32,000 nt of DNA from Candidatus Saccharimonadota bacterium (GCA_965229705.1 OZ245922.1:360001-392000), one strand, 5' to 3'; positions 1 to 32,000 are shown, counted from the stretch's first letter. Made by a program: numbers and translations. Notes: generated by a model from the sequence alone, not told the origin.

Positions 1-1491
1 TCAGTGATTATCCAAACAGGTTGCGATAACTACTGTACATTTTGTATTGTTCCATACACGCGGTGAGGGGAAATATCTCGTCCAGAAGATGATATAATAA
101 ATGAGTGTCAAGATGCCGTCTCCAATGGAGCAAAAGAGATCACGCTTCTCGGGCAAAATGTCAATTCCTATGGGAAACAAAAAAATAGCAAACTTTGGAA
201 TAGTGAAAAATCGAGATGGAATACTGCTCAAAAAACTCTTAAAATAGGAGTCGATCTTGATGATACTCTCTTTGTTGTACTCAGTGAAGAAGTCATACAA
301 AGCTATAATGCCAAGTATCATAAGATTCTCGAGCTCGATGATGTGCGAACATTTAACTGCAATGGTATACCAGAGCTTATGCAGGAATATCACAACTATG
401 AACAGAGACACCGATGAGATATGTCTCTCCATGAGAATGGAAAAAAGGTATTGCAAAAATTATACGCTGCAGGACACAAAATATATGTGATCACCTCAAG
501 ACCAGCAAAAGAGAGAAAGACTACAGAAGCACTTTTGGAAAAATATTTTTGAAAATGATTTTTTTCTCAGATATGTTTTGTCAGTGAGCTTGGGCATGAT
601 AACAAGTATGAGATTGCCAATACTCTCCAGCTCGATGTGGTTATCGATGATGGACCACATCATATCCGTGCCTATCAAAAAAACTTTTCAGGAAAAATAT
701 GTATATTTACTCAACCATGGAACAAGACTATCTCAGAAGATGGGCAAAAAACCTATAGAGTCAACTGCTGGAATGAGTTTGCTGAAAGGATAGAGAGTTT
801 TCAGTTTTATTCGCCTTTTCGATCTCTCTTAGAAAAAATAGATACTCTACAAGGTCTTGATCGTATACGATTTACTTCCAGCAATCCACATGACATGACG
901 AGAGATATTTTGGATGCTCATAGTGAGCTCTCAAAAACCTGCAATTATCTCCACTTTGCTCTCCAGTCATGAAACAATAAAATGCTCAAAAAAATGAATA
1001 GGCGTCATAGTTATGAAGATTTTCGTGATATGGTAACGTATCTGCGAAAAAAAGATCCTCTCTTTTCTATTTCTACAGATATTATTGTATGATTTAGTGG
1101 AGAAACTGATGAAATGTTTGAGGATACTGTTCGCGCGTTTCGAGAGTGCATGTTTGACTTCTGTTATACAGCGAGGTACTCTGTGAGACCCAATACCCTT
1201 GCAGCAAAAGTTATGCCAGATAATGTTCCTGAGAGTGTCAAAGCTGAGAGGTGGCATATACTCAATGATCTTTTGTTAGAAAATATTTCTCAGAGAAACG
1301 AGCTCATGCTTGGAAGAGTAGAGAAAGTACTGATATCATGAAAAAAAGATGCCGTATTTTTTGGGAGAACACGTAACTTTAAAGAAGTTTTTTTCGAAGC
1401 TCCAGAGAGCTGTAATATCTGAGATTTGGTAGACATAAAAATAACCGATCGTGATAGATATGTACTCAAGGGAAAGTATACAAATACATAA
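1..1491 (+). CDS. miaB: tRNA methylthiotransferase MiaB (radical SAM), 5' end outside window, with a large in-frame insertion
   Basis: Frame +1 is open from base 1 to TAA 1489-1491 when TGA=Gly (8 in-frame TGA). Radical-SAM CDNYCTFC at 22-45. PYTR-G has its Gly encoded by TGA 64-66. Also [35 protein letters not shown] and a C-terminal TRAM-like segment (GRTRNFKEV...DIKITD). Confidence 0.85.
181..804 (+). other. HAD-superfamily (5'-nucleotidase/NT5C-like) domain nested in frame inside miaB
   Basis: About 200 extra residues lie between the MiaB motifs [11 protein letters not shown] and [12 protein letters not shown] motif I is IGVDLDDTL (from 241), motif II is VITSR, motif IV is VVIDDGPHH, followed by FTQPWN. 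No TAA/TAG occurs across either junction. Confidence 0.7.
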
Positions 1492-1497
1492 AATGCT

Positions 1498-1797
1498 ATG
1501 CAAATACCAAAGGAAAAATTTCAAGATCTTCTCCGTTCATGAGAATATATACTCCTGGATGTTCGTACGTTTCATGAGCAGGAAACCCATGGAGTGATAT
1601 CACAAGAACAAATACATATAGATATTATGGAAACTGATGCTTCGGAAAAAATCAAAAATCTTGACCATCAAAAAAAATACCTCATCTATTGCTGGCATGG
1701 CAGGAGAAGTGCGACAACAAGAGAATATATGCAGGCTCATGGTTTTAAGAATGTGTATGATCTCCAGTGAGGAATAGATGCTTGGAAAGAGCTTTAA
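1498..1797 (+). CDS. single-domain rhodanese (sulfurtransferase-like) protein, 99 aa
   Basis: ATG 1498 to TAA 1795-1797, with 2 in-frame TGA. Active-site loop CWHGRRS and C-terminal LQGGIDAW. Starts 7 nt after the miaB stop. Confidence 0.8.
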
Positions 1798-1851
1798 AAA
1801 AATTCTGAGAAAGGCATTTTTATTTTTCGAGACCGGTCTCGAGTTCATTAT

Positions 1852-1857
1852 TTTAAG
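1852..1857. repeat. left copy of 6-bp target-site duplication TTTAAG
   Basis: TTTAAG lies immediately outside the TGT terminus of the IS. An identical hexamer lies at 2754-2759. Confidence 0.75.
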
Positions 1858-2753
1858 TGTAAGAAACTCTAGGGTTGTTTACACTTTTGGATAATCTGTA
1901 CAGCAGAATATTTTAGAAGTTAAACATAAAGGAAATGAATATACATAAACGAACAAGGCTCACTGAAATGCAAAGAAAAGATATATGGGAGAAATATAAA
2001 AATGGTACAAGGGTGAGTAGCCTCTCAGAAATATATCTCACTTCCCGAGTCACGATATACAAAGTACTTTCTCGAGCTCGCAGACAAGAATTTAGACCAA
2101 GAAATTCTACAAATCATAAATACAGAACTCTTGAATGGTGACTCAAAAGATTGTGAAAGATAGAAAGAAAGATAGTTGAGAAGAAAAATAGAGAGGCTCA
2201 GAGATACAATAAAACATATCCTGGAGAAATGCTTCATGTAGATACTAAAAGACTTCCTCCAATAGTTTGAGATGTAGATAAAACACCAGAATACTTATTT
2301 GTAGGAGTAGATGACTATAGCAGAGAGGCATATGTATCAATACACAAAGATAAGAGTCAGTATTCTTCATCTATGTTTCTCAAACAAATACTTGATGAAT
2401 GCCCCTATGTGATTGAGAAGGTATATTCAGATAACGGAAAAGAATACAAATGAAGTAGTGAACATGAATTTGTGAAAGTTTGCGAAGAGCATGGAATTAC
2501 TCAGGGATTCACACGAGTAAAAAGACCACAAACAAATGGTAAAGCTGAGAGATTTATACGAACTGTAATGGAGATGTGGCATAAAAAATACCAATTTACT
2601 ACCCGTAAAGAAAGGAGAATATCTTTAAAAAGATTTGTAAATTGGTATAATACGGTTAAGCCTCATAAAGGTATTGAAAACATGACACCTTATGAACTTA
2701 TTGAACAATTTTATTATCCTGAAAAAGTGTAAATAACGCTCTAAGATTTAACA
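1858..2753 (+). mobile_element. IS481-family insertion sequence (896 bp), apparently intact
   Basis: Termini are TGT...ACA. Imperfect terminal inverted repeats of about 31 bp: left TGTAAGAAACTCTAGGGTTGTTTACACTTTT versus the reverse complement of the right end TGTTAAATCTTAGAGCGTTATTTACACTTTT. Perfect 6-bp direct repeats flank the unit, and it carries a single DDE transposase ORF. Confidence 0.8.
1935..2732 (+). CDS. IS481-family DDE transposase (rve integrase core), 265 aa
   Basis: ATG 1935 to TAA 2730-2732, with 4 in-frame TGA read as Gly. N-terminal HTH-like region. Catalytic-triad contexts are HVDTK, YSDNGKEY and TNGKAER. Confidence 0.85.
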
Positions 2754-2771: not shown

Positions 2772-3962
2772 TTAGGAAATTTTTTTCATCCGCAGTTTAA
2801 AAATCTCTCTTCAAACTATTTGCTGAGGTCTCTTATACAGGAGGCTCCCTGATCGAGTATGACGAAGTGTATCATGCTGAGGAAGCAGTGGAAGAATCTT
2901 ACAGCGCTCTTCAATGATATCGTATATTTCGGAGAAATAGTGGTATTTTCCTCGTATTTCCCAAAAAGGAAAAGATATCACTATGACTCATGAGTAGTTT
3001 GCTTTTTGTAATCCATAAAAAAACTTTGCATATATATCTGAGAGTTCTTTTTTTTCTTCTTGGAGTTTCTTTTCTGTTACACAGTATTTGTGAAATATCT
3101 TTCCAAGATATCATTCTGTTACGAGAATATCTGATTTTTTGAGAAAGGGTGAGCTGGAAATTCATCGCGCATCCAAAACACCTAGCATAGAAGTCTTAAG
3201 GGAAGTATCAAAATTTTTTCTGATAAAATTTATATTTTGCTGAGACTTTTTGGTATTCTCTGGAGAAATATCACTCCCATATACCTCTGTGTTTCACATA
3301 AGAGCAGACTCTATGAGAATAGTTCCTAGTCCACAAAATGGATCATATATACGAACCTCTTTTCTGTCACTTTGAGCAATATTTACCATGATCTGTGCAA
3401 GTTTTGGAGGGAGCATACCTACTTGCATATCACGAGTTTTCCCATAATCCCTCTTTGAGTAGGCATCTATATCTTGTACCCAGAGTGTTTTTCAAAAATA
3501 CTGAGCATCATCAGACTCAATAATACTATAGTCTGTTTGCCTTTCTATGAGTTGCTCTGAGAGGATTTGGGCACTATTGAGGTTTTGGAAATTTTTATTC
3601 ACAAAACGAGCAGATATACCTTTTTTTTGGAGAAATCTTTTTGTATCTTGTAAAATTTCTTTGAGTCCTGTCTCTGTTCATATGAAGGAAATACCATAAC
3701 GAAATTTTCACTCACATGACTCAGCAAAGGGGATAATGCTGTGAGCTGCTTGTCATCGATACCCAGGAATGAGCTCAATGAGTTTTATGATTCCTCACAT
3801 ATTTTTTACTCCTTGTAAAAGCTTTTCACGAAAATTTTCCTCAGAAGAAGGATGTATGATACAAATATCTCTATCAACATACTCTATATCAAGAGTAGGG
3901 AATAGCGAATGTATCTCTGCTAGAGAGAGTTTAAACTCTCTTCATAGTTGGAATGCAAACAT
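2772..3962 (-). CDS. class I SAM-dependent RNA methyltransferase (Trm11/UPF0020-like), 396 aa
   Basis: ATG (rc of 3960-3962) to TAA (rc of 2772-2774); 1191 nt open with TGA=Gly. Motifs: GMLPPKLAQIMVNIA, SAM-binding IYDPFCGLGTILIESA, VYGSDIS, and LVTEGYLG in the place of the DPPY-type motif IV. The standard-code ORF 2911-3165 is in a different frame and looks spurious. Confidence 0.7.
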
Positions 3963-4079
3963 AATAGAGCTCGTTTTAAAAATATAATGTTCGGATTTTA
4001 TATTGAGTAAAAATTGTTTTTTTTTAATTCATATTATACTAAAACACGTAGTAAACATTAAAAATTTTTTAAAAAAATC

Positions 4080-5132
4080 ATGTGAAACATTATTTCTTTT
4101 TTTAATCATAAAGGTTGAGTTTGAAAAACAACTCTTGTTCACAACTTAGCTTTTGCACTTGCAGATAATGGAATGAAGGTTTTACTCATAGATGCTGATC
4201 CTCAAATGAATCTTACATCTGCCATGTATGGTCTCTCAACAAGCATAGAATACTCAACTGATATACATTCTTTATGGAGTAAAAATATACAAAGATATAT
4301 ATCTATTTCTGAGCATCTACGTGAATATCTTGAAGATATTTCATGTCATAAAGAAAAATTTACGCAAAAAAGTAAAAATCTAAATGGAAAAATAGATCTC
4401 ATATCAGGAGATATAAATCTTACAAATATTGAAGCTGATTTGTATGGTATTATTAAGAATAGAAACAACTTTACTCAAGATATTCCATACAAGTTTGAAA
4501 AATCTATAACAGATTTTCGAGCAGACTATGACTTTATTTTGATAGATACTTCTCCTAGTGCAAGCAGTATTATAAATGCCTTACTGGTAATATCTAGTGA
4601 TTATTTTATTGCTCCTGTAGCTCCAAGTTTCTTTTCTTTACAAGCTATTGATAATCTTTCTACTATTTTTCAAAATTGGATACAACTTTTACAAGAATAC
4701 AGAACCACTCAATGATTTAGAAAAGGTCTTTCTTTTGATGTAAAATTTTTATGACTTGTTGTTCAACTTGCAAAAAGATTTAAGGGATATTCCTCCGCAA
4801 CTAATGCTTGGGTAAAAGATGTGAATGAAAGTGCAAAAAAATTTCAAAACTATGCTGCAACTATTGATAAATCAATTACGCACCAAGAGTTTATACAAAT
4901 ATTTTGAAATGAAAGTTCACCATTTATCATAGAAAAATGTTGTGATTTTACACCCAAGTTAAGAAGTATTGCTGAGAAAGAGGGAGTTCCCGTGATTTAT
5001 CTCACACAGAGTATATGTACAAAACATGATCCTACCGTGGATGTAACAACAGAAGAAGGTCAATATACAAAATCTCTCTATAGCATCAATACTGCTTATA
5101 GAAAAATAGCACAATCCTTAATGAATCTCTAA
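4080..5132 (+). CDS. ParA/MinD-family P-loop ATPase with C-terminal extension, 350 aa
   Basis: ATG 4080 to TAA 5130-5132, with 6 in-frame TGA. Deviant Walker A NHKGGVGKTT has two glycines encoded by TGA (4116-4118, 4122-4124). Also LLIDADPQMNLT and ILIDTSPS (Walker B-like). Confidence 0.8.
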
Positions 5133-5141
5133 ATCTTCAAT

Positions 5142-6074
5142 CTATCAGGGTAACTCTATACTATAAGGAAAAATCATTTTCTCTTCTTTTGTGATGATTT
5201 CTTTTACAAGGTTTCCGCCATGATTTTTAAGATATTTTAGGGTTTCTTGAACCAGTGAATCTGGAACACTCGCACCAGAAGAGACTCATAATGACTGTAT
5301 GTTTTCTAAAAATCATTTTGGTATTTCTGATGGATGATCAATCAAAAGAGAAGGAATTCACTTCTTTTTTCAGATATCTCTGAGTTTTTGAGAGTTGCTA
5401 GAGTTTTGTGATCATACGATGATAAGAGCATCTATATCTTGCGTTATGGTTTTTACTGCTTCTTGCCTATTTGTTGTCGCGTAGCAGATATCCGTAAAAC
5501 TTGGCAGCTGTATATCTGGATAGAGCTGTTGAACATATTCTATAAGATCCTTGGTATCATCAACGCTCAGAGTTGTCTGGTTGAGAAGCGCGAGTTTTTG
5601 TCATGGGGAGAAGCGGAGCTCCTTAGCATCCTGTTTATTACCAACAACATATATATTTTTGAGATCGTTATCTTGTACTCACAGGGCTTCTTGATGGTTC
5701 TTTTTTCAGATATATATGACTTTGTATCACTCTGAGATAAATTTTTTTGCTTCATTGTGAACTTTTATCACTAAAGGACAGCTGGCATCAAGAGTTCTCA
5801 GTCACTTCTCTTGGGCTCTTTTTACAAAACTTGGCGCTACGCCATGAGCAGAGAAAAGTATAATAGAGTTTGGAGGAATATTTTCTATATCATCAGAAAA
5901 GATAACACCTTTTTTCTGAAAATACTCTACAATAAGTTTGTTATGAACAATCTCATGATTTACATAAATAGGCCCTTCGTCTTTATAGGTCTCTACCACA
6001 TCATCCAGCATTCCTATAGCTCTTTCTACTCAGGCGCAGTATCATCGGGGTGAGGCAAGGTATATATCAAACAT
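5142..6074 (-). CDS. ispH: 4-hydroxy-3-methylbut-2-enyl diphosphate reductase, 310 aa
   Basis: N-terminus MFDIYLASPRGYCAGVERAI, with both Gly as TGA (rc of 6042-6044 and 6030-6032). Also SAHGVAP, DASCPLV, LNQTT, CYATTNRQ and VGSQNSSNS. Stop is TAG (rc of 5142-5144). Confidence 0.9.
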
Positions 6075-6433: not shown

Positions 6434-7045
6434 TTAGAGTCATAATGCATATACAAGATCACGGTGAACGGTATCAATATCTTGATCAGCGTTGATTTTT
6501 ATAAGTTTTCCTTCTTTCTCATACTCTTTGAGCAAAGGAAGAGCGAGGTCTATATATAACTGGATTCTTTTTTCTATCGCGCTTTCTTCATCATCACTGC
6601 GTTTTATGAGTGTTTCTTCAGAGTTTGGATCTCTCAGAGTTCCTTTAGGAAAAGTCTCTCCTGTTCTTGGATTGTACATGCGGCCGAGAAGTCTCTCTTT
6701 TGCTTTTTTTTCATTGAGTTCAAATACCACTACTGTATAGCCTCAGAGAGACATATCAGCGGTTTGCTTATTTCAAAGATTTCTGACGAATCCATCAAAT
6801 ATAGCATGTTCACGATCAAGCTTATTTTTGAGTATATCAAGCATGATTTCCTCTATTATTGAGGGAGAAACATGATTTCCCTCTTCAATAGTAGCTTTGA
6901 CACTTTGTCATAGCTGGCTATCCTCTATTGCAATATTCCTGAGTGCTACTCAAGACTCAAAAAGACGAAAATTATATCTCTGCTCCAAGAGTCGTGCTTG
7001 TGTTCATTTCCCTGATCACTGTATGCCTATAAAAACATAATTCAT
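6434..7045 (-). CDS. adk: adenylate kinase, 203 aa
   Basis: MNYVFIGIQGSGKGTQA P-loop, with two Gly encoded by TGA (rc of 7016-7018 and 7004-7006). Also DGFVRN and RSDDEE. The standard-code ORF ends at TGA 6440-6442; the true stop is TAA (rc of 6434-6436). Confidence 0.9.
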
Positions 7046-7571: not shown

Positions 7572-9140
7572 TTACTTTTCGACAATAACCTTCTCAAACA
7601 TATTGAGTATTTTTTGGAGACATTTCCATTTACGATTCACTTGGTCAATAATCTGAAAATGTTCTATATCAATGAACCAATACTTCTTTTTAATATAGAG
7701 ATAATACTCCGACGGAGAAAATACAAAGTTCTCATCATCCAGCCTATGAGAAAGATAATAGTAAATAAGATCTGATATAAAAATAGGGAAGACAATATCC
7801 TCTTTTTTTTCAAATTGTGAATATATAGCACTAATATTTTCTACATCATGGAATCATACCTTTCCAAGAAATAGTTTATAAAAACTCCCTCCTGAAGAAA
7901 TATACTCACACATTCATGACAAACCCCGAAAATAGACTACATCCTTGTGCTGAACTCATATGTGATCAAAACTATAGTTTCGCTTTGCGCGAATAAGAGA
8001 CACCCTATAGTTCCTCTTGCACTGATACTCTTTTCCCATCACTCTCATAAACTCCTCCAGTTGGTCTCCAGATAAACACTCACCAGCCATGATAATAAAA
8101 AAATACTCTACAATATTATCAATATCTTCGTGAGAATGTCAGGAAAATATTTTCTCCATAAACATCGCAAGTCACTCTTCTTTTGGAAGATTTTTTGCTC
8201 CACGAAAATTTCATAAAAGTATTTTTCCATTATAAGAGTTAATATAGTGTGACTCTATCTCATGGGTAAGAAGCTTGAGAAGCCTTTCAAGAGAAAAAAC
8301 ACTGTGAGCATCATTGCGGGGAATTTCTAAAAAATGGTCTCCATCATAAATAGATCAAGCATTTGTGATTTTTGTTCTTTGAGGCAGATTATACAGCTCA
8401 CAAACACTATCAAATATCTTTCTATAGTCTTTTCTCTCTATAGGGGCTTTCATAAAAGATGCTTTCAAGGAAAAATTTTTCGTTTTTGGAGAGTCTTGCA
8501 CCGTAAAGTTTTTGTGAGACTGTATGACGTGCAAACACTCTCTCATAACCTTTTGATCACTCATAGAAAGTCTCTTCTTTTTTGTCTCGTGATTTCGAAT
8601 GACAAAGTTGTAACAATACGCAAACTCTTCAGGAATATCTGTTACCTTTGGACCAAAAAGTATTTCTTCTTTCTCTTCGATTTCACGAATTCTCTTAGGT
8701 ATTTGATTTTTCTTGAGTTTCAGGGGAACCCCAGCCTTTTCTAACTCAAAGGGGAGTCATAAAAGAGAAAGTTCCAAGACATGCTGTACATATACCAGAG
8801 CATCTCAGAGCATTCATCTTCGAAGAGAGGTATTTCGAGAATATACGGTTATTTTTTGAAGTTTTTTATTCACCCGCTCTATACACTTAATTTGAGTGCG
8901 TATTTTGTATTCATATGTCTTTCATAAAGTGTCTATATGAAAATCTCAAGATGACGCTCATACATATTCTTCAAATAAGGTTTCATTGAATAGGTTTGTA
9001 TCGTTAAATTCCCTATAACTATAGGTGACTTCTATAATCTTTTCAAGACTTCCATGAAAAATATACTTTTGACAAAGAGAAATAATATCTTCAAGACTCT
9101 TTGCAAAAAATAACTGTATATAAAATTTTATAGATCACAT
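7572..9140 (-). CDS. DUF1704 / QEGLA-motif family protein (putative metallo-carboxypeptidase-like), 522 aa
   Basis: 1569 nt open with TGA=Gly. HExxH-type THEIESH is followed about 25 residues later by EEGLAMF, matching the HE(I/V)GTH ... QEGLA pattern of this family. Stop is TAA (rc of 7572-7574). Confidence 0.6.
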
Positions 9141-10862: not shown

Positions 10863-10890
10863 AAAAACTTCAGATTACTCTGAAGTTTTT
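10863..10890. terminator. bidirectional hairpin between convergent dnaA and the rlmCD-like gene
   Basis: Perfect 12-bp inverted repeat AAAAACTTCAGA / TCTGAAGTTTTT with loop TTAC. A/T runs form the stem ends and serve both directions. It overlaps the stop codon of the minus-strand gene. Confidence 0.55.
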
Positions 10891-12329
10891 TGTACAAAGC
10901 TCACCACCGTCTCTATATGATGAGTGTGAGGAAACATATCAACTGCCTGAACTTTTTCTATGGTATAATCAGAATTCTTGAGAATATACTCACTATCTCG
11001 AGCAAGTGTTGCAGGGTTGCACGAGACATAGAGTATTTGTCGCGTTTTAAACTTGAGTATATTTGGAAGAGCGCTTGGGTGCATGCCAGCTCGAGGAGGA
11101 TCTATGATGAGTAAATCTGCTCTTTGTCACTTATTGAGGTAGCTTTCGAGAAACTCTTCAACTTTCGCGTTTACAAACTCCATATTTGTGACTCTGTTCC
11201 TCTGAGCATTATTTCTTCCGTTTTCTGAAGCCTCTTTTACCAGCTCTACAGAAATAACCTTTTCAGCAATATCAGAAAACAGCATTCCTATAGTCCCAGT
11301 ACCAGCATAGAGATCAAGAATAATACTTTTATCTTGCTGAATCTTATATTCCTGCTTATGAGTAGAAGATGCTAAAAAGAAATCTTTTACAAGGCTGTAG
11401 AGTACCTCAGCCCCTTGAGAGTTTGTCTGAAAGAAACTCTGTGGTCATATATCAAAGCTATATCACAAAATATTCTCTGAGATAGTAGCCCTTCCATAAA
11501 CACACTCAAGGTTTCATATAAGTGTATCAGAACTATTGGTATTATGAGAGATATATACTGACTTTATAGCAGGAAATGTTTGTCATAGCTTTTCTATAAA
11601 GCAGTATATTTCATCTAAAGCACTTTGTAGCTTCTTGTCTCCTTTTGGAAAAAACTCTGGATTCAGAGAAAAAACAAGAAGTATCTCTCAAGAAAAATAC
11701 ATCTTCCTCATCATAAAATGACGCCAAAATCCTGTTCATATTTTTTGATCATATACAGGATATCCGCTTTCTTTTGTAAACTCTCGGACTTTTGCATATA
11801 TCTTGTTTTGCTCTTTATCTATCAAAAAACAATCTTCAAAATCTAACACTTTTGAAAATTCTCCTCGCTTATGAAAACCAATATGAAACTCCTCGAAAAC
11901 ATCTTCTTTATGAGAAATATATTTCCCAAAAGAAAATTCTATTTTATTACGATATCAAAACTGTTGCACTGCAGGAATAATAGGAAGAAAAGGAATATTT
12001 TTTTGAAATTTTTGAATATGAAAAAAAGCCTCCTCTAATTGCTGCTGCTTTATCTCGAGTTGTTTTTCGTAAGAAATATTGACCCAAGGAGCACCAGGAA
12101 GATGAGGGTGGAGCTCTGTTTCAAAAGGAGATTTTTTTACAATATTCACTATTTGCGCTTCATAATAATCTCTTCTTTTTTTGATGATTTTTATGTCTAC
12201 TATTGCTTCTGGAATAGCTCCTCAAGTGATAAAAATAACTTTATTATCATCATAGTTTCGAGCAAAACCCTTTCCTCCAAAAACGAGCTTTTCAATAGTA
12301 ATGTTATGAAGAATAGTTCCTTTTCTCAT
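10875..12329 (-). CDS. RNA (uracil-C5)-methyltransferase, RlmCD/TrmA family (TRAM + SAM MTase), 484 aa
   Basis: N-terminal TRAM-like ITIEKLVFGGKGFAR. Also GYRNKIEFSF, LDLYAGTGTIG, LIIDPPRAGMH, YVSCNPATLARD and VDMFPHTHHIE. Stop is TAA (rc of 10875-10877). Confidence 0.85.
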
Positions 12330-13015: not shown

Positions 13016-14668
13016 TTACATCATCCCCATTCCTGGCATTCAGCCCATAGCTCACATCCCTGGAGGCATAGCTGGAACTTCATCCGTTTTTCTCGACGCA
13101 CTTACTACAGCTGCCTCTGTTGTGAGGAACATTCCTGCAAGTGAAATAGCTTCACTCAGAGCAATTCTCTCAACTTTTTTTGGATCAATAATTCCATTCT
13201 CTAACATATTTACAAACTCATCTGTTGCGGCATTGTAACCAAAAGAAATACCTTTTGATTCAAGAACCTTATTGATAATCACAGATCCTTCTTTTCCCGC
13301 ATTTTCGACTATTTGACGAAGAGGATAAGAGAGCGCTCGTCTTACAATATCTAGACCAATATCTTGATCAGCATTTCCAAATGAAATACCTTTCAGAGCT
13401 TGAGAAGCCTTGAGTAGAGCAACCCCCCCACCTGCAACAACTCATTCTTCTACTGCAGCGCGAGTGGCATTGAGAGCATCTTCTATACGGAGTTTTTTTT
13501 CTCATGCTTCTACCTCACTCACAGCACCAACCTTGATAAGCGCTACTCATCATGCAAGTTTTGCAATTCTTTCAGTAAGTTTTTCTTTATCATAACTACT
13601 ATCAGTGTTGTTATGCTGCACTTTGAGTTCTTGAACTCGATCATCAATATCACTCTTACTCCCAGCTCCTCCTATAATAGTAGTATGTTCTTGAGATGAT
13701 ATCACGCTTCCCGCATGACCAAGTTCTTCAAGAGTGATATTTTCAAGCTTCATTCAAAGCTCATCAGTGACAAGAGTCCCACCTGTGAGTATCGCAAGGT
13801 CTTTGAGCATTTCTTTCTTTTTTTCTCCAAACCCAGGAGCTTTTACACCAAGAACATTGAGGACTCATTTCAGCTTATTGAGGATAATAGTTGTCAGAGC
13901 TTCACCTTCAATATCATCAGCAATAATTACTAGGTCTTTCTTCCCACTCCCAACAAGTTGTTCTAGTAGAGGAAGAAAATCCTTCATGTTAGATATTTTT
14001 TTATCAGTTAAAACAATAGGAACATCCTTCATCTCACAGATCATTTTGTCAGTGTTTGTTATCATATATGGACTCAGATATCAATTATCAAACTGCATTC
14101 ATTCTGTTATATCTACCTCCATACCAAATGTTTGCCCTTCTTCTACAGAAATAACTCCATCATTTCATACTTTTTCCATTGCCTGAGCAATGATACTTCA
14201 TACTTCTTCATCTTGCGCTGAGATAGTTGCTACCTGAGCAATCTCATCTTGGGAAGAAATTGTTTTTGTATTTTTTTCAAGTTCATTTGCGACAAGTTCT
14301 CCAGCCTTTTTCATTCCATTTTTGAGTTCAACCGAGTTTACTCCTGTTTTTATATTACGGAGTCATTCTTTTGCGAGTGCGTAGGTCAAAAGCGTTGCTG
14401 TTGTTGTACCATCACCTGCAAGGGTATTAGTCTTTTCTGCAGCTTCTTTCACGAGTTCTGCTCACATATTCTCAAAGTTATCTTCGAGTTCAATTTCTTT
14501 TGCAATAGTGACTCCATCATTTGTTACTTGTGGGGCACCAAATCATTTTTCAAGAATCACATTTCGTCCCTTAGGTCACATAGTTACAGTAACTGTTTGA
14601 GCAACTTGCTCAATACCACGAAACATTTGAGATCGAGCATCATCACTGTATTGAATTTTTTTTGCCAT
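13016..14668 (-). CDS. groEL: chaperonin GroEL, 550 aa
   Basis: [12 protein letters not shown]...[14 protein letters not shown]...[17 protein letters not shown]. The C-terminal Gly-Met tail MGAMGGMPGMGMM has two Gly encoded by TGA (rc of 13052-13054 and 13040-13042). Stop is TAA (rc of 13016-13018). Confidence 0.97.
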
Positions 14669-14706: not shown

Positions 14707-14985
14707 TTATTGAACTTTTCACAATATGTACTCTATTGCGACTATTTTGTATTCTTGATCTCCAAGTTTTACTTCATCACCAGAGTATTGTCATGCAAGA
14801 ACCGTATCTCACAGGCTTATACAAGTCATATCCTTATCAACCTTTCCTGGTCCAATAGCAACTACTTCATACATAAAAGGTCTCTCTTTATTAACGCTAT
14901 CTGGGATATAAATGCCAGAGTTTGTGACACTCTCTTGCTCAAGAGCCTTGAGTACAACTCTATCAAATAGGGGAGTAATATTCAT
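14707..14985 (-). CDS. groES: co-chaperonin GroES, 92 aa
   Basis: MNITPLFDRVVLK...SGIYIPDS...VVAIGPGK...GDTVLAGQYSG. It lies 38 nt upstream of groEL. Stop is TAA (rc of 14707-14709). Confidence 0.9.
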
Positions 14986-19675: not shown

Positions 19676-20719
19676 ATGATCAAAGAAATACTCTTTTATG
19701 CCATTGAGAACCATGCTTCTGATGTCATTCTTGCAAGTGGAAACTTGCCTGCAGTAAAACAATTTTGAGAAATTGTATATTTAGATGAATATGATGTTTT
19801 GAGTAATAAAATTCTCTCAAACGAACTTAAAAATATCATGAGTGAAGAACAAAAAACTTCTTTACAAAAAAAATGAGAAATAGATTTTTCATATGAAATA
19901 TCAGAAATAGGAAGGTTTCGTGTGAATATATTTTCACAAAATCTTGGTCTAAGTCTTGTTTTTAGGGTTATTAGTCCAGAAATACCAAAAAAAGAAGAAT
20001 TGTGACTTCCTCTTCATATAACAGACTTATTGGAGAAAAAATCAGGGATTATCCTTGTGACTGGTGGAGTAGGATCTGGAAAATCTACAACACTTGCTTC
20101 ACTAATAAAACATATTAATCTTCATTATTCTCGACATATTATTACGCTAGAAGATCCAATAGAATATTTTCATGAAAGCCAGAATTCTCTCGTAGAACAA
20201 AGGGAAGTAGGGAAAAACACACAAAATTTTGAGAATGGTCTGATGTATGCTCTCAGGCAAGCAAGTGATGTTATCATGATAGGGGAGATGAGAGATCTTG
20301 AGACATTTCGCTTGGCTCTTCGAGCAGCAGAGACAGGGAACCTTGTACTTGCAACAGTTCATACAGCTTGAGCTGCAAGAACTATTGCTCGTATTATTGA
20401 TATGTTTCCTGGTGAAGAAAAAAACCATATTAGAACACAACTTGCAGAGTCCCTTATTGCGGTACTTTGGCAAGACTTGCTTCCAGCAAAAGAAGGGGGA
20501 AGAGTGCTTAGCTCTGAGCTTCTTATAAAAACAAAAGCTATTGAAAACATGATTCGTGAAAGTGTTGTTCATCAAATAAATGGCGCTATAGAAACAGGAA
20601 AGGACTTTGGTATGATTTCTATGAAGCATTCTCTTGAAAAACTACTTGAAGAAGAAAAAATATCGCAAGAAGTATTTGAGAGATACATGAATCTTTATGG
20701 TATCAGCCAGGATAGCTAG
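19676..20719 (+). CDS. pilT: type IV pilus retraction ATPase PilT, 347 aa
   Basis: ASDVILASG, Walker A GGVGSGKSTT, TLEDPIEY, Walker B-like VIMIGEMRD, LATVHT and AVLWQDLLP. Stop is TAG at 20717-20719. Confidence 0.9.
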
Positions 20720-23588: not shown

Positions 23589-24698
23589 ATGAATACTTTC
23601 AAAACATTTTTTCTTGTTTTTTTGGCTGTAAGTCTTTGCTTTCCAAATAGCGTTTCTAGTATTTCTCAAAACTCTGAAATACCAAAAAAGCCTCTTATAA
23701 TATCTCGAGAAAGCTGGTGAGCAAATCCACTTTATAACGATATTGACTCAAAATATTGGAAAGAGATACTCAAAAATCGAAAAAAAAGACAGCAAGAACT
23801 TGAAGAAACACAAAGTATAGAGGATAAAAAGAAACAACAAGAAAAATCAGCAGTGATACAAAACTATCTCTATGGAAACTTTCTCAAGCAGTTTACTTCG
23901 CAGGAGATTATCTACTATCATCCAAAAACATGAGTGCGACTTGCTTGGCCATTTCAGTATACAGAAGAAGTAAACGCACTCATTATTCATCATACTCATG
24001 GAGAATATTCTCATAGCCTTGAGGGAATACAAGAAATACATAGATACCATAGCCTCACGAGAGAATGGTGAGATATAGGATATAACTATATTATCTGATA
24101 CAATGGAGAAATCTTTGAGGGAAAAGAGGGAGGTGACTATGTGAGATGAGCACATTCTTCATATAACAATTTCTGAACTATTGGTATTTCAGTAATGGGA
24201 AATTACCATACCAAGCCTATAAACAATACTCAGTATGAATCATTGGAAAGCTTGGTAAAATACCTCGCATACAAGTATGGTATAGACCTCAATAAGAAGC
24301 GATATTATCATATGAATTGTGCTAAAGAAAAGTGTGATACTTTTTATCTTGAGACCTATCTTGATAGCGTTATGGCAGGGCATAGGGACTCATGACACAC
24401 ACAGTGTCCATGAGATGAACTCTACAAGCAAATGGTACAAATACGCGAAGATAATTTGGAATTTACCAAAGGCTTTACACTCAAAAAAAGGGGAGAGTTT
24501 GACAGTAGGGAAACAGACACAGAAAAGGTCTTTCAAACCTCTTTAATACATGAGTTTCGAAAAAAACTTACCAAGTATGATTCAGAAAAACTTTCTGAGT
24601 TTCAGAAAAAACTTGACATTTTGATATGATCAGAAACTGATGAAGAAAAGAAAAAACATCTTCAAATTCTTGAACTTGCAATATTCTTAGAATATTAA
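23589..24698 (+). CDS. secreted N-acetylmuramoyl-L-alanine amidase (PGRP / Amidase_2 type), 369 aa
   Basis: Signal-peptide-like MNTFKTFFLVFLAVSLCFPNSVSS. Zn-ligand contexts IIHHTHG and GHRDSGHTQCPG. Also WGDIGYNYIIGYNGEIFEG and GAHSSYNNFGTIGISVMGNY. Stop is TAA at 24696-24698. Confidence 0.85.
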
Positions 24699-24988: not shown

Positions 24989-26335
24989 TTAATAATTTTG
25001 AACTTCATAAATAAATTCTTGTGCCTTATCCGTATAACTCTTCCAAAGAGAAAAACTTGGAGCAGCACATGAAAGTAATGCTATCCTTCCAGGTAAAGTT
25101 GTTTTGTAACAAAAGTCAACTCATTGACGCATACTCCGTGTTTTGATAAACTGAAGATACTTTCCATCAATTTCTATTTCAAAAGCTATTCCATAATCTC
25201 GCGATTTGATTTCTGGAAAAATAACCTGTGCAGTATCTGGAAAAGCAATAATATTTTGAATATGAGAATCAAGTATTTTTGTTCGTAATTCAGAAAAGTC
25301 AAATCAGCTATCTTCACCTCATACAAAAAGTGTCTGTATATCGCTTCAAAATGTATTTATAGCTGCTATAGTGCTTTGTGGAGTTGTAGCAATGGCATCA
25401 TTAATAAAGCGAATTCCTTCATATTTTCCAATATCTTCAATGCGATTTGGAAGTCATCAAAAGCTTGGAAGCACTTCTGAAAAAATACTTTTAAGAACAC
25501 TTGCATCACTGATAACTGTATGGAGTATAGCTAAAACTCAAGAAATATTAGCTCTGTTATGATTTCATAAAAGTCTCACTTCTCAGTCATATATACTTTC
25601 TCCATTTAAAGAAAATCCCTTTTTATCATAAGAATACTTCCCTTTTGTATCAAAAAATATTTTTTCTACATTGATATTGAGAACTTCAGGGTCTTGTGAT
25701 AGATCTCCATGTAAGATTTTTGTTTTTGCATTTTTTAAAATATTGAGTTTTGCTTCCCTGTATATATTAAATGAACCATAGTGCCAATCAAGATGACACG
25801 AATAAATATTATTTAAGAACCCTATTTCAAGTTTTGGCGAAAAGTCTTGTAACATATAGCTTGAAAGTTCATATATAATGTAATCATATTCATCTTTTCA
25901 TAGCTCTATTTCATCTAAAACAGGTCTTCCTATATTTCCAACAAGTTTTACATTGTACCCTCAAACTTTTAGGCATTCAAACAACAAAGTAGAAATAGTA
26001 GACTTCCCTTTTGTTCCAGTAATACCTATCACTTTTCCATCATAATTTGAGAAAAATATTTGTGTTTGAGAGATAATTCTTTCCTTGCAAGGAAGAATCT
26101 TTTCATGAAATGGAGAAATACCAGGAGTCTTAATAATGAGATCAAAATCTCTCAAGTTATCAAGATACGATTCTCATGAAACGATGTTTACTCAGATATT
26201 GTCTTCATGAACATTTGCATCTAAAATGGTAATATCACTAATACTATGACTTTGTAAAAAGTTGAGAGTACTTCTCCCCTCTTTTCCAAAGCCAAGAATT
26301 GCTATTTTTTTGTTATGTAGATTTTTTATTTTCAT
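24989..26335 (-). CDS. murD: UDP-N-acetylmuramoylalanine--D-glutamate ligase, 448 aa
   Basis: IAILGFGKEGRS, GITGTKGKST, NHNRANI, LPNRIE and INDAIATTP. Stop is TAA (rc of 24989-24991). Confidence 0.9.
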
Positions 26336-26337
26336 GC

Positions 26338-26802
26338 TTATATATTTTGACATACCTCTAAAGCTCTATGTACAAGTTTTTTAGTATGTTCCAAACTTGT
26401 TCCCCACTGAAAATTTTGTCCTCGAGATTCAAGGTCTCAAAGAGAAGTAAATATTTCTGCGTGTGTTATTTTTTGTACTTCATTTGAAGAAATAAGTAAA
26501 TAATATATTTGTGAAAAAAACCATCATTTCTCAAACCTCATAGGACCATCTTGGCATATGGGAACCAATCTATCTATTGCGAGGCAGAGACTTGCTTCGC
26601 TTGTTTCAGCAAGCTCTCTGATCGCAGTAATAAGTAAGTCTCCTCTATCTATAGACTTTTCTTTCCCTCCAAAAAGAGTGAGTTTTTCTTTTCATGTTTC
26701 TATAGAGGTGTTTTTATGAAAATACACAGATCAAGAACGGTCTTGCACAACGACTTGTGAAGATCTGAACGGATTTTCTTGTGTTCATATTTTTGCTATC
26801 AT
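26338..26802 (-). CDS. NUDIX-like hydrolase with degenerate Nudix box, 154 aa
   Basis: FGGKEKSIDRGDLLITAIRELAETSE resembles GGKxExGE...RELxEExG, but with a 2-residue insertion and an E-to-T change. The stop lies 2 nt before the murD start, and the start abuts the dedA stop. Confidence 0.4.
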
Positions 26803-27411
26803 TTATACTTGATGTTTCTTATAAAAAATATAGCCTCATATGCTCACTATGAGAACAATAAGTATCACAACAAAAGTTTGTGAAAGTAGCTGATGTATGA
26901 GTTCATCATTTTTTCCAGCTAGGTATCAAATCGAAAGGAGAATAGCGTTCCATAAACCTGCACCAATAAAAGTAAATAAGAGAAATTTCCCATAATTCAT
27001 ACAAAAAATTCAAGCAGGAATAGATATCAGTTGCCTCACTGCTGGTATAAATCTTCAAGCAAGGGTCGTGATAGATCCATGTTTTTGAAAGTACTTTTCT
27101 GAATACTCGTAGTGTTCAACACTCAAAAATATGTAGCTTCCATATCTTTTTATCAGCATTCTTACAATAGGTCATCAGAGTTTCCATCCAAGAATATAAT
27201 TCACACTTGCTCATACGAGAGCTCATCAAGTTCCAGCAAAAAAAGCATATACGAGGTTCATCTCTCAAAGCGCTGAGAGATATCATGCTGGAATCATTGC
27301 TATCTCACTAGGGAAAGGAACAAAAGAGGATTCTATCATCATCATGATAAAAATACCCGTATATCACATTCCGTCAACGAGGTTTAGTACAAAATCTACA
27401 AGTTGGTGCAT
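26803..27411 (-). CDS. dedA: DedA/SNARE-associated family membrane protein, 202 aa
   Basis: [56 protein letters not shown] and several further hydrophobic segments. Confidence 0.8.
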
Positions 27412-27524: not shown

Positions 27525-27551
27525 TTTCTCTCCTTTTCCAAAGGAGAGAAA
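27525..27551 (-). terminator. hairpin downstream of the purN-like gene
   Basis: 12-bp stem TTTCTCTCCTTT / AAAGGAGAGAAA with a 3-nt loop, 40 nt past the stop. There is no clean U-tract on the minus strand. Confidence 0.35.
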
Positions 27552-27590
27552 GCTCGATAGAGCCAGAGAGGATTAGAAATTTTTTGTTTC

Positions 27591-28322
27591 TTAAAGTTCC
27601 TTTAATGCTCATTTATATGGGAACCCTTCAGGGTAATGAATAGTAGTACCATCACTATCAAGGTATATTTCTTTATTGACTATCATGTTTGTGATTTTCC
27701 ACTGCCACTCATGCTCCACTGCATTAACAGCCCTTCCTACATCTATATCAGACTGGCAATTACTTATATCTACAGGTATTTGGCAAATAATCGGACCTCT
27801 ATCAATTTTATCAGTAACAAAGTGCATTGTTACACAACTTTGGGAAATATTTCAATTTTTGTAGTCTTCCCATACTTTTTTATGAACATTGCCTCCATGC
27901 ATTCAGTTTCACCCATATGGTGCTTGTGTAGGTCAAGGATGAATATTTATTGTTTTTTCTACTGGGAGTCATAACACATATTTGAGCCATCAAGAAAGAA
28001 AGATATACTCTAAGTCATATTCGTGCATAATGCTAATATATATTTCTCGTATTTCTTCTTTTGTATTGTCATCAAACTCTCAGTTTGTGTTTCTCTTTGG
28101 GAAATGTGGAATATGATGAAATCTTAATTTCCCAGGAATGATACCTTGCTCCACTATAAAATCTGAGAATACTTTGTATACTCATCATCTAGCGTGGTTT
28201 GTTATAAGAGTAATATTTTCAATTCCCGTGATTTCTCCTGTTTTTACTTTTTCAAGAATTTTTCTTGCACCACTTCCTCATCAATCTATTGAACCAGAAG
28301 CAAATATTCAAATATTTTTCAT
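27591..28322 (-). CDS. purN: formyltransferase-domain protein (PurN-like phosphoribosylglycinamide formyltransferase), 243 aa
   Basis: IGIFASGS, INIHPGP...YGGNGMHG and MHFVTDKIDRGPIICQ. The standard-code ORF stops at TGA 27609-27611; the true stop is TAA (rc of 27591-27593). Confidence 0.65.
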
Positions 28323-28344: not shown

Positions 28345-29796
28345 TTATTTTTTCAGTGTTTTTTTCTGATAACATTTTTGAACTACCATATCAATAATCT
28401 CTCTACTTTGACCTATATATTTATGAGGATCTGTAATTTGAACTATTGTTTCCCTATCAAGACGTGAAGTAATCTCATCACACTCAAGTACAACATCTAC
28501 AAATAGCTTTCCTTGTTCCCAAGCACTTAGAGCCAGTTTTCATGTGAGATCGTGCGCGTATTCTCGAGACATAGGGTTACTCGTTCTGTTTGGGTCTGTC
28601 AGATAGGTCATCACCTGCTGAGATGTTACAACTCAAAAACTCCTCTCTACCCTTTCAGCACTTCTTTCACTGTTTATTTCTAACCAATAGATAGTACCTG
28701 CAAGGTTTCTTATCACATGATCAAGAAACTTAAATCCATCTTCAAAATTGATTCTTGCATTTGCTGACGCAGAAAGATTTCTCGCGTAGGGCATCTCACA
28801 ATTCATCATTGCTGTTACAAGATTTCATGAAAAATAATTTCTCAATGACATAGTTTGTTCCTCTGTAGTAGGATTTCCATTTTTTGCATCCTTATGAGGC
28901 ATAGCAGAAGAACCTTTCTTTCTATGAGGGTTTCCATTTATAAACACATTTACATCATCACTCCTTCCATTTGCAATAAACCTTGCAATATTATTGAGTG
29001 TTTCTGTAAGTCTCGCCATAGCAAAGAAAATATCAGCTTCAAATTCTAAACCAGGTATTTGACCTGCAGCATCCATATATCAGACCTGGAGTTTTGATGC
29101 AAGATTTTTTTGAAGTTCCTGTCAATCAATTCATAGAGCCGTTGCAGAATGATGATTTCCCGTCGCATCTCCCCATTTAGCCTTCAAAGAATTCTGGTAA
29201 ACAAAGTGTATGATATCTAAGTTTGACTGAAGCATCTCAACATAGTGTACCAGTGGTCTCCCTGCTGTTGTTGGAAGAGCATCATATAAGTGAGAAGTAT
29301 CCATAAACGCTATATCTCTCCATAAGACTGCTTTTTCACAAAGTATGTCTCTTACATTTTCTGTAACTCTTGCGATAATCTCAAGAGATGATTTGAACTG
29401 TAATGCTCTTACAGGTTGAGTAGTATCAGCGCTAGTTTTTGCTTTGTTAATATGTGTTTGAGCATCCTCTGATACTTTTTCTGCAAGAGCTCTATTAATT
29501 GCTATAACATCATGTCATGTTTGCTCTTCGATTTCTCTTACTCTTTCAAGATCTACTTGACCACTTGTAGCTACCCTGTAGATTTCATCTGCCAAATAAG
29601 GAGGAACAATGTTTGGATAGAGATCAGAGAGCACTTGTGCAGAGAGACCTTGAACCTTGAGTGAAAGCCCTATAGTCTTTTTTGCTCACCAAATATCAAT
29701 CATATCTGATGTTCCATACCTTCCTGCAGCAAGATCAGCTGTATCTGGTCTTTCTCACTCTGGAAAGCAAGAAAGTGGTAGTGTTTGTCAAAACAT
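28345..29796 (-). CDS. purB: adenylosuccinate lyase, 483 aa
   Basis: Signature GSSAMPHKDAKNGNP, TSHLYDALPTT, and fumarate-lyase-family N- and C-terminal regions. Stop is TAA (rc of 28345-28347). Confidence 0.9.
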
Positions 29797-29820
29797 AATA
29801 CTAGTATGTTAAAAAATATA

Positions 29821-31167
29821 TTACAAAATAATTGTCTCATCATGTACTCATACTCATCGTATGGTACTGTATGACTTCTTACTTTGGGAATATGTTTCTC
29901 CTATCACTCTTGCTGTTATTCCCTCTTCTCTTGCAAGAGATATAATTTTAGTTTCTTGTCCTTTATCACAAATAAGCGCGTATGGCAGTCACATATTCCA
30001 TCACTTGAGAGCATCTTTTCAGCTTATATCAATTACCTGTTGCAGGATGGCTATAATAGTCGGGATCGGCATCTGCGAAATATCTATATCAAGAAACACT
30101 CATGGAGCTCCATCTATAGTTTTTTTCAGAGGATTTCCTGTGACATGGATGAGAGAACTGAGTCTCACTTGGGGTTCTCCATCAACTCAACCAAGCAGTT
30201 TTCGAGAGATAAATGGATTAAATACCGTGCTCTTCCCTACCACTATCTCCCACATCTTTTTTCACTTACACAGAGAGCGTATATTCTTGTGAATCTTTTT
30301 GGCTCTTTGTCTGCCCAAACACTCAAGAAAATACTCAAAACTTTTATTCTCCCAGTTATCTCCTGTAAGATCTCTCATAGATTTTCGGATAGCTGTGATA
30401 CCGTTTGATCGAGGTCAGATAATACCGTTTTGTTCTTTTTCTTGCAGTCCAATGATGCTTTGTCATGGTCTCAGTGCAAAAAGTTTCTCTCAAGGCGAAG
30501 TAATACCTAGCGATGTCCCGGCTATATTGAACTCTATCTTTTGAAGTATATGTTCTATTTTTTGGAGGATAGCATCTTGCAGAGTTGTTTCTCGTCAATA
30601 TCAAAGACACATAGCAATGTTAAAAGTTCATTTGATACATTCTATTATTTCTTGAGTTGATTTTGAGTTTCATAAAACTGCTGTTTCTCAAGCAATAATC
30701 ATAATATCATTTTCTCGTATCACATTTGCCATAGCCTTTGCCATACTATCTGAAAAGAGTTTTCCTCTTTTCCCACTAAGATGGTTGATATCAATAATAT
30801 TTGTTACTGCAACAGCCATTTCTCATTTTCTGAGATCATCTGTATTCATCGCAATAAGATCATGAAGCATTCTCTCCCAAATATCAATAGATTTTTCAAG
30901 GAGTTGTTTATCGTTAATGACTCATCTTTCATGCTCTTGAATATATCACTCAAATGCTTGCGTGTAAATCTGCACTTTTGTTCCTACACCATCAATGCTT
31001 TCTTTTGTTGAGTATCATGGGAGTAAAATACCCGTTTTATCGAAATACTTTACCACGCTTGTCTCTTCATTTGCCGCTTGGCAGGCAGATAGAAAACTCT
31101 TCGAAACCTCATCTCCCGACTGTACTACTCATACGCTATAATCGTGCATTGTATTGCCTGTTTGCAT
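29821..31167 (-). CDS. purM: phosphoribosylformylglycinamidine cyclo-ligase (AIR synthase), long form, 448 aa
   Basis: SIDGVGTKV, AMNTDDL, IIAGETA and QSIIGLQEKEQNGIIGPRSNGITAIRK (PurM GL-SSG-HSNG-SL-RK pattern). Alternative in-frame start at 31149. Standard-code ORFs here are in other frames or on the other strand. Confidence 0.8.
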
Positions 31168-31189
31168 GTTTCTTAATAATAAAGATGTA

Positions 31190-32000
31190 CTAATTTCCTT
31201 TCATAGAATGAAATATTCCTTCAAAAAGAGGAAAGTGTTTCTCTCATGGGATATTTCTAAAAACATTTTTTCCTTTTCTCTCTGGATGTGGCATCATTCA
31301 AAGTATCCTTCCATCTGGACTCGTCAGTCCTGCAATAGCGTGATCTGAACCATTATACTCATCGGTTGGATTTCCTCTATAATCAACATATATCATTGGT
31401 ATCTGTCATTGCTGAGAGTACTGATCAAATCTTTGCTGTGGTATAACAACTCGTCATTCTCCGTGGGAAATAGGTATTGTATAATACTCTTGAAGATGAA
31501 CTTGACTCATTGCTGGAGAAAGAAGAGAACGAATCTCTAACTTTACCAGTTCTGTTTGATGACGCATACTGCTATTGAAAGTAAGCGTTTCGTCACTATG
31601 AGTGAGATAATCCTTTACTTTACCATTCTCAAAAACTCAGAGCTTTATCAGAGCCTGAAAACCATTACAGATACCCAGCGTCACGGTTCACTTTTTCTCA
31701 AGAAATGCTTGAAAACTCTCACGAATTTCAGAGGAACGCATGATATTTGCGATATATTTTGCACTTCCATCTGGCTCATCACCATTTGAGAATCCTCATG
31801 GAAATACCAGTAAATGAGTAGAGCTGAGTTTATCAGCAAAAGTTTTTCGTGATCTTTGAAAATTTTCTACTCCATGAAGTGTTTGAAATACAAATTCTTC
31901 TACCTCAAACCCCGCCTGCATCAAGGCGTGGCGTGTATCAAGCTCTGAATTTGTTCCCGGAAATACTGTTATAAGCGCTTTTGGTTTGCATGATAATATT
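31190..32000 (-). CDS. purL: FGAM synthase, glutamine amidotransferase region (C-terminus of large PurL; 5' part outside window)
   Basis: ALITVFPGTNSELD, triad contexts LGICNGFQ and HGEGR, and MMPHPER. Stop is TAG (rc of 31190-31192). No in-frame start lies before the window edge, so the protein continues upstream. Confidence 0.75.

Follow-up and report, generated by a model that had tools for sequence, protein, structure and literature searches.

The 32,000-nucleotide stretch analyzed here (the window), deposited as Candidatus Saccharimonadota bacterium (GCA_965229705.1 OZ245922.1:360001-392000), almost certainly belongs to the UGA-recoded Gracilibacteria/BD1-5 lineage (class JAEDAM01 in the Genome Taxonomy Database, GTDB; "Candidatus Gracilibacteria" at NCBI), in which UGA acts as an ordinary glycine codon and the stops are restricted to UAA and UAG (translation table 25). 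The code itself is already known from BD1-5/Gracilibacteria, where a prediction of UGA = Gly from 2013 was followed by proteomic validation in 2014, and scientifically nothing about it is new here. Rinke et al. 2013 is among the works on genetic code 25 in Gracilibacteria/BD1-5. An initial annotation, made from the DNA alone, had proposed that UGA is decoded as Gly across the whole window, and this proposal is now supported by orthologue alignments, diverse GroEL proteins, ParA homologs, codon-level comparison of relatives, a sister strain, internal repeats of one protein, and amino acid composition.

The reading frames establish that TGA is a sense codon. Under the standard code (code 11), 33-42% of the window, which has a GC content of 33.9%, lies in open reading frames (ORFs) of at least 100 amino acids (aa) counted stop to stop, and the longest ORF has 250 aa. 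When TGA is freed as sense, coverage rises to 94% and the longest ORF to 923 aa; the gain in coverage and length is far smaller when TAG or TAA is freed instead. We defined 26 protein genes, with 86% of the window coding. In-frame TGA occurs in all 26 (2-21 per gene, 233 in total), and code 11 cuts each of them into 3-22 fragments. The 9,188 codons of the coding frame include 233 TGA but no TAA and no TAG, whereas each of the other two frames contains 160-240 TAA/TAG; this difference is far beyond chance. As the initial annotation had stated, every gene ends in TAA (18 genes) or TAG (8 genes), but this is so by construction once TGA is read through, and the informative part is the orthologue-like lengths together with the Pfam coverage. 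With TGA read through, GroEL has 550 aa (548 in Escherichia coli), IspH 310 (316), and threonyl-tRNA synthetase (ThrRS) 640 (642). Pfam profiles are spanned end to end across the TGA codons, LYTB at 1-267 of 267 positions over 13 TGA and Cpn60 at 1-487 of 490 over 16, and Bac_DnaA is matched at 2-162 of 162 across in-frame TGA. The earlier claim that the standard code fragments the genes and that readthrough of TGA restores them thus holds for 26 of 26, with lengths that match those of orthologues.

Codon and amino acid usage agree with this picture. TGA accounts for 2.5% of all codons and, at 36% of Gly codons, is the most used codon for this residue (TGA 233, GGA 206, GGT 121, GGG 64, GGC 19). 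Translated with code 25, the proteome contains 7.0% Gly and 0.76% Trp, compared with 7.4% and 0.94% in the E. coli orthologues; leaving TGA out lowers Gly to 4.5%, and code 4 (UGA = Trp) raises Trp to 3.3%.

The positions at which TGA occurs point to glycine. All ten codons that the initial annotation had singled out are TGA, in the frame and motif claimed for them, among them those of MiaB (64-66, CIVPYTR[TGA]GE), ParA (4116-4118 and 4122-4124, HKG[TGA]V[TGA]KTT), adenylate kinase (Adk; reverse complement (rc) 7016-7018 and 7004-7006, GIQ[TGA]SGK[TGA]TQA), IspH (rc 6042-6044 and 6030-6032, PR[TGA]YCA[TGA]VER), and the GroEL tail (rc 13052-13054 and 13040-13042, PGM[TGA]AMG[TGA]MPGMGMM*). For an alignment with ten E. 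coli K-12 orthologues, each TGA of the window proteins was written as X. The 80 aligned TGA codons face 40 Gly, 7 Ala, 5 Ser, and 1 Trp; given a background of 7.4% Gly, the probability of at least 40 Gly in 80 random columns is ~3e-24. In the same alignments, GGN falls on Gly in 101/154 cases, GGA on Gly in 47/80 (59%), and TGG on Trp in 4/13. A Codetta-like likelihood computed from these alignments places Gly for TGA ahead of the next-best residue, Asn, by 46.6 nats and ahead of Trp by 124 nats; as a control, the method assigned 49 of 55 other codons correctly, and its six errors fell between similar residues (e.g., Ile/Leu/Met and Phe/Trp). By protein, TGA falls on Gly in 14/16 cases in GroEL, 8/12 in IspH, 5/7 in ThrRS, and 4/5 in Adk. 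In 116 diverse GroEL representatives (50% cluster level) retrieved with HMMER, the 16 TGA columns pooled are 79% Gly and 0.06% Trp; ten of the 16 reach 80% Gly or more, and Gly occupies two columns in 116/116 sequences and two others in 115/116. The 42 GGN columns of the same protein are 67% Gly. Finally, the TGA pair in the Walker A motif of ParA faces the GG of KGGxGKT in the ParA/ParF/Soj homologs of the Protein Data Bank (PDB), hkgXvXktt aligning with nkggvgktt and pkggsgktt. E. coli orthologues, the 116 GroELs, and the PDB homologs therefore concur with the initial annotation that TGA falls on invariant glycines of universal motifs. In the homolog columns Gly is dominant, and a preponderance of Trp, or of no consistent residue, is absent.

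Comparisons within the lineage, made at the level of codons, lead to the same assignment. We aligned 80 groEL loci from GTDB species representatives, 62 of them from metagenome-assembled genomes (MAGs) labelled Gracilibacteria, Peribacteria, Patescibacteria, or unnamed (63-80% protein identity) and 18 from Proteobacteria or Bacilli (53-57%). At 12 of the 16 TGA columns of the window GroEL, all 31 groEL genes that lack in-frame TGA, including the 18 from Proteobacteria or Bacilli, have GGN; at those 12 columns the 37 relatives with at least three in-frame TGA have GGN or TGA only and never TGG. When all TGA codons of 38 recoded groELs are set against the 31 TGA-free genes, they face Gly in 83.7% and Trp in 0% of 11,232 pairs. 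MiaB family proteins in the public collection are translated with code 4, so that W in them denotes TGA. Across 110 relatives, six of the window's eight TGA columns contain nothing but G or this W, whereas at the five true TGG columns 59-60 of 60 sequences have W. Since the TGA columns are G/W mixtures and the TGG columns stay W, TGA exchanges with GGN and not with TGG. A sister strain, represented by a metagenome contig from the European Nucleotide Archive (L010; ~96% identical and syntenic over ~17 kb), conserves 94 TGA among the 4,401 codons compared. Six codon changes involve TGA, four of them to GGA/GGG and none to TGG, TAA, or TAG, and the remaining two lie in a repeat protein where the register is uncertain; ThrRS codon 185, for instance, is TGA in the window and GGA in L010. 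Under code 25, 304 of the 472 substitutions between the two strains are synonymous. The same repeat protein, of 889 aa, has TGA in the Gly columns of its own paralogous repeats (GGGXXGGG, AGGGGGGX, GGGXGGGS).

The window's affiliation is suggested by its closest relatives. All named top homologs of its GroEL and MiaB are Candidatus Gracilibacteria, the best GTDB representative GroEL is 80% identical, and the relatives share in-frame TGA at the same glycine columns. No Absconditabacterium was found among the named close homologs (GroEL, MiaB, groEL loci). The placement in a code-25 lineage made in the initial annotation is borne out by these homologs, as judged from single-protein similarity and not from a phylogeny. 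TGA use varies widely among the relatives, the number of TGA among the roughly 50 Gly codons of groEL lying anywhere between 0 and 38, and 13 MAGs at 63-67% identity (with Gracilibacteria, Peribacteria, Patescibacteria, and unnamed labels) have no TGA in this gene. According to the gTranslate preprint, JAEDAM01 (BD1-5 and Absconditabacterales) is the GTDB class that is recoded, while GTDB class Gracilibacteria uses table 11, which explains why relatives labelled Gracilibacteria can lack in-frame TGA; the TGA-free MAGs fit non-recoded sister lineages that bear the same NCBI names. In the Codetta survey, UGA = Gly was predicted in 13/15 Gracilibacteria and 6/6 Absconditabacteria species, and the two Gracilibacteria exceptions have release factor 2 (RF2) and lack tRNA-Gly(UCA) (PMC8629427).

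Among known recoded systems, the window most resembles code 25 of Gracilibacteria/BD1-5 (JAEDAM01, order BD1-5; PMC4032931; Sieber et al. 2019, PMC6851277), with which it has in common low GC, UGA = Gly throughout, UAA/UAG as the only stops, TGA shared with the nearest homologs at the same glycine columns, and a small genome; nothing essential differs, and TGA use is high here (36% of Gly codons, 16/58 in groEL). Code 25 of Absconditabacteria/SR1 (Campbell et al. 2013) likewise has UGA = Gly, but in the window CGA/CGG are still Arg and no named close homolog is from Absconditabacteria. Code 4 of Mycoplasmatales and reduced endosymbionts is similar in that UGA is sense, the genome is small and AT-rich, and coding density collapses under code 11; in contrast, the TGA columns here are Gly, not Trp. 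As to further codons, Codetta assigns CGG to Trp in some Gracilibacteria and both CGA and CGG to Trp in Absconditabacteria, as a prediction (PMC8629427). In the window, CGA faces Arg in 12/20 columns, and two of the eight CGG codons, a number too small for statistics, fall on invariant Arg (MiaB PYT-R-G and ThrRS DLPF-R). We therefore rejected a reassignment of the Absconditabacteria type; judging by the alignments, CGA and CGG retain their Arg meaning, with no sign of further reassignment.

UGA would be read by a dedicated tRNA with the anticodon UCA and Gly identity elements (G1:C72, C2:G71, G3:C70, U73), and RF2 would have been lost, so that UGA would no longer be a termination signal; both steps are drawn from the literature on the clade. 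No tRNA(UCA) was found within 10 kb of groEL in 60 relatives (~1 Mb scanned), where only tRNA-Leu and tRNA-Arg genes were detected. When metagenomes were scanned for tRNA(UCA) genes whose acceptor stem is of the Gly type, 106 matches were obtained, 18 of which were confirmed as tca tRNAs; we set these aside as evidence for this organism because the recoded contexts are phage-like and the contigs unrelated. Four of the low-GC metagenome contigs (L148, L156, L158, and L160) carry a tRNA that combines the anticodon UCA with an acceptor stem of the glycine type (GCGG...CCGC-U73). In three of them (L148, L156, and L158), coding coverage rises from 0.11 to 1.00, from 0.27 to 0.85, and from 0.47 to 0.97 when TGA is treated as sense; these three are probably phages of recoded hosts, given their terminase-, portal-, and capsid-like ORFs. 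In L160, the tRNA(UCA) lies between tRNA-Tyr and tRNA-Thr in a Thr-Tyr-X-Thr cluster, the arrangement of E. coli glyT upstream of tufB.

Several observations weigh against the assignment of UGA to Gly in this organism. Of the 80 TGA codons with an E. coli counterpart, 40 are not on Gly, and in the more divergent proteins TGA falls on Gly less often than GGN does (3/13 vs 14/21 in MurD, 1/6 vs 10/16 in DnaA, and 0/7 vs 5/13 in PurB). GroEL codon 389 (13502-13504, minus strand) is TGA in a column that is Lys/Arg in 116/120 close relatives and in 81/116 diverse GroELs. There is no tRNA gene within the window; profile scans found neither prfA nor prfB in the 32 kb, and the loss of prfB is a matter of the whole genome. 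The peptide proof of Gly at UGA comes from another BD1-5 bacterium only, in which unique peptides numbered 97 for Gly, 3 for Trp, and 0 for a stop (Hanke et al. 2014, PMC4032931). The low match in divergent proteins is consistent with A/T-rich Gly codons being placed at less constrained sites, and the Gly match rate of GGA is likewise below those of GGG and GGC. Overall, TGA is on Gly more rarely than GGN (40/80 vs 101/154, P = 0.02); a second meaning of TGA, which this difference might suggest, was rejected because GGA (47/80) behaves almost like TGA. Codon 389 appears to be a lineage-specific Lys-to-Gly replacement, since TGA is found there in this species pair only.

MiaB modifies A37 of tRNAs that read codons starting with U. 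One speculation, which we regard as very unlikely, is that the lineage-specific MiaB with its nucleotidase-like insert may be tied to the modification of A37 in the UGA-reading tRNA and that UGA may not be purely Gly: a wobble conflict between tRNA-Gly(UCA) and UGG, or an incomplete loss of termination, might give rise to a measurable share of other residues or truncated products, chiefly at TGA codons outside Gly columns (GroEL 389 and most of those in MurD, PurB, and DnaA). The proposal that UGA is mainly Gly but ambiguous, with Trp or other residues inserted at a low level or with residual termination, strikes us as more improbable still. It draws on the proteome of the other BD1-5 bacterium, in which, at the highest stringency, 40 peptides had Gly at UGA and single ones had Trp, Ala, Asp, or Lys (PMC4032931), on the possible U34 wobble ambiguity between UGA and UGG raised by Shulgina and Eddy (PMC8629427), and on the TGA of GroEL codon 389 in its Lys column. 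Ambiguity cannot be shown by sequence data, however; the non-Gly residues have the same spectrum at TGA and GGN columns (Ala, Ser, Lys, Asn, Asp), and the TGG columns of MiaB stay strictly Trp.

The other alternatives are excluded by the data. A reading of UGA as Trp (code 4), which is used by Mycoplasmatales, certain insect endosymbionts, and a few recently reported Patescibacteriota, has a probability near zero. ORF lengths and coding density cannot separate code 4 from code 25, the public protein collection translated this genome with Trp at TGA, and the gTranslate preprint describes the first UGA-to-Trp cases in Patescibacteriota; against this stand the single Trp at 80 TGA columns in the E. 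coli comparison, the deficit of 124 nats in likelihood, and the Trp frequencies of 0.06% and 0% at TGA columns in two GroEL sets. Under code 4, the proteome would reach 3.3% Trp and GroEL would carry 16 Trp, whereas TGG is absent from the window's groEL and no more than two Trp occur in 110 of 122 diverse GroELs; in MiaB, the TGG columns are Trp and never mixed with Gly, while the TGA columns are Gly/TGA mixtures. The initial annotation was thus right to discard UGA = Trp. Still less credible is a standard code with pseudogenes or assembly artifacts in which TGA is a real stop. Although code 11 does fragment nearly every gene, TGA is the sole interruption (0 TAA/TAG in 9,188 codons despite 34% GC), frames are intact end to end with full Pfam coverage, L010 keeps 94 TGA and shows 304/472 synonymous substitutions under code 25, and relatives from many independent assemblies have TGA at the same Gly columns. 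Weakest of all is site-specific recoding by selenocysteine insertion or programmed readthrough: UGA is a selenocysteine codon in many bacteria, and ARAGORN labels any tRNA(UCA) "SeC", but 233 TGA spread over 26/26 genes make up 2.5% of codons, none falls on Cys in the E. coli alignments (SECIS elements were not searched for), and the sites are glycines of P-loops and structural motifs, not redox-active positions.

Table 1. Genes of the window; protein identities are from Pfam and NCBIfam profile matches where these are listed.
Gene	Position	Strand	In-frame TGA (other codons)	Stop	Profile match or other support
MiaB methylthiotransferase, 5' end cut, NT5C/HAD insert	1..1491	+	8	TAA	Pfam Radical_SAM (2 stretches), NT5C, TRAM
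Rhodanese-domain protein	1498..1797	+	2	TAA	Pfam Rhodanese 3-101/102
IS481-family transposase	1935..2732	+	4	TAA	Pfam rve + rve_3; NCBIfam transpos_IS481, E 1e-54
UPF0020/Trm14-like methyltransferase	2772..3962	-	11	TAA	Pfam UPF0020; NCBIfam TIGR01177
ParA-family ATPase	4080..5132	+	6, two in Walker A KGGVGKT	TAA	Pfam AAA_31 + CbiA
IspH (LytB)	5142..6074	-	13 (8 GGN)	TAG	Pfam LYTB 1-267/267
Adenylate kinase	6434..7045	-	7, two in P-loop GxxGxGKGT	TAA	Pfam ADK
Bacterial RNase P RNA, class A, complete	7165-7505	-			159 bits, model positions 1-367 of 367
MATCAP/DUF1704-like (QEGLA) protein	7572..9140	-	14	TAA	Pfam MATCAP weak, 24.7 bits, below cut-off; TIGR02421 partial
DnaA	9418..10848	+	6	TAA	Pfam Bac_DnaA 2-162/162, Bac_DnaA_C
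RlmD/TrmA-like uracil-5 methyltransferase	10875..12329	-	9	TAA	Pfam tRNA_U5-meth_tr
Hypothetical protein, 181 aa	12410..12955	-	3	TAG	ORF kept in strain L010; no Pfam match
GroEL	13016..14668	-	16 (42 GGN, 0 TGG)	TAA	Pfam Cpn60 1-487/490
GroES	14707..14985	-	3	TAA	Pfam Cpn10 1-93/93
Hypothetical membrane protein, 144 aa	15763..16197	-	3	TAG	ORF with TGA as sense, kept in L010
Threonyl-tRNA synthetase	16629..18551	-	11	TAG	Pfam tRNA-synt_2b + HGTP_anticodon
Hypothetical protein, 128 aa	18681..19067	-	4	TAG	Same 128-aa gene in L010, zero codon differences
PilT-like type IV pilus ATPase	19676..20719	+	4	TAG	Pfam T2SSE
Repeat protein, 889 aa	20793..23462	-	19 (19 TGG)	TAG	About 8 internal repeats of 73-82 aa
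N-acetylmuramoyl-L-alanine amidase	23589..24698	+	9	TAA	Pfam Amidase_2
MurD	24989..26353	-	13	TAA	Pfam Mur_ligase_M + MurD-like_N
Hypothetical protein, 154 aa	26338..26802	-	5	TAA	ORF with TGA as sense; no Pfam match
DedA/VTT-domain membrane protein	26803..27411	-	12 (11 GGN)	TAA	Pfam VTT_dom 1-122/123
PurN-like formyltransferase	27591..28322	-	13	TAA	Pfam Formyl_trans_N
Adenylosuccinate lyase (PurB)	28345..29796	-	10	TAA	Pfam Lyase_1 + ADSL_C
Divergent PurM-like protein	29821..31149	-	21 (21 GGN)	TAA	NCBIfam purM residues 328-419 only
PurQ-type glutamine amidotransferase, 5' end cut	31190..31999	-	7	TAG	Pfam GATase_5 1-241/260

Several of these genes have features of their own. In MiaB, a 191-aa NT5C/HAD (5'(3')-deoxyribonucleotidase-like) domain, encoded at 235-807 on the plus strand, interrupts the radical-SAM domain in frame, following GQNVNSYG and preceding the RIRFTS.NPHD strand. 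Long MiaB proteins (~660-685 aa) form about 60 Gracilibacteria protein clusters and the ordinary ~480-aa form about 50; both forms are found in recoded genomes, and one long MiaB carries the JGI name "MiaB/5'(3')-deoxyribonucleotidase". The IS481-family insertion sequence spans 1853-2758 and is bounded by 36-nt imperfect inverted repeats (1853-1888 and 2723-2758, 72% complementary); its transposase likewise reads TGA as Gly, four times. The 889-aa protein, whose repeats contain the motifs IDLLGEE.G..LW and FLE.FA.SL and which also has a Ser/Thr/Pro/Lys-rich tail, has tandem repeats of 219 and 246 nt at the DNA level and no significant Pfam match. A small ORF at 15255-15647 (plus strand) encodes a coiled coil with LPP-like heptads (ELKADVSGLKTDV) and includes a 21/42-nt tandem repeat at 15370-15468, which is also present in L010 as multiple offset blastn matches to one 99-bp stretch. 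The PurM-like protein (442 aa), encoded between PurQ and PurB, contains a DGVGTK motif, and its partial match is to TIGR00878; no Pfam match was found. A search for DnaA boxes around dnaA as a mark of oriC showed no enrichment (8 matches vs 10 expected).

The sister strain differs from the window in gene content as well. The ParA-family gene is absent from L010, where IspH abuts the UPF0020 methyltransferase (window 3966-5149 vs L010 20169-20171), and the ParA region, about 1.18 kb long, has been inserted or deleted in one strain only. Conversely, L010 is longer in two places. From the MATCAP-like gene to the RNase P RNA it has an extra 1.6 kb (16163-17772), which contains a 513-aa ORF, and the interval from the repeat protein to PilT is about 1.1 kb longer and contains a 255-aa ORF (1140-2232). 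L010 2098-2206 is 85% identical to window 27494-27602, and the two may be copies of a dispersed intergenic element. The gene most diverged from L010 is that of the 889-aa repeat protein, with 69/320 codons differing.

The practical meaning of the code lies in how genomes of this lineage are translated. The GroEL of the public collection (P0001) is the window protein except for Trp at the 16 TGA positions, and MiaB (P0121) differs from its window counterpart in the same way, by a Trp wherever the gene has TGA. From the same code-4 cause, at least 5 and up to 41 Trp are present in 102 of the 120 closest GroEL entries. Such an outcome is to be expected from the coding-density heuristic of CheckM and GTDB-Tk: as the gTranslate preprint points out, it can tell table 11 from a UGA recoding but cannot distinguish between tables 4 and 25. 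The warning of the initial annotation that any standard-code annotation of this contig is wrong is real: code-11 calls leave each gene in 3-22 pieces, and code-4 calls give full-length proteins with Trp wrongly placed at about 2.5% of residues, invariant P-loop glycines included. In the public proteins of this genome, Trp replaces about 36% of glycines. Alignments and profile models for this lineage are distorted by such Trp-for-Gly sequences, and so are its structure predictions.

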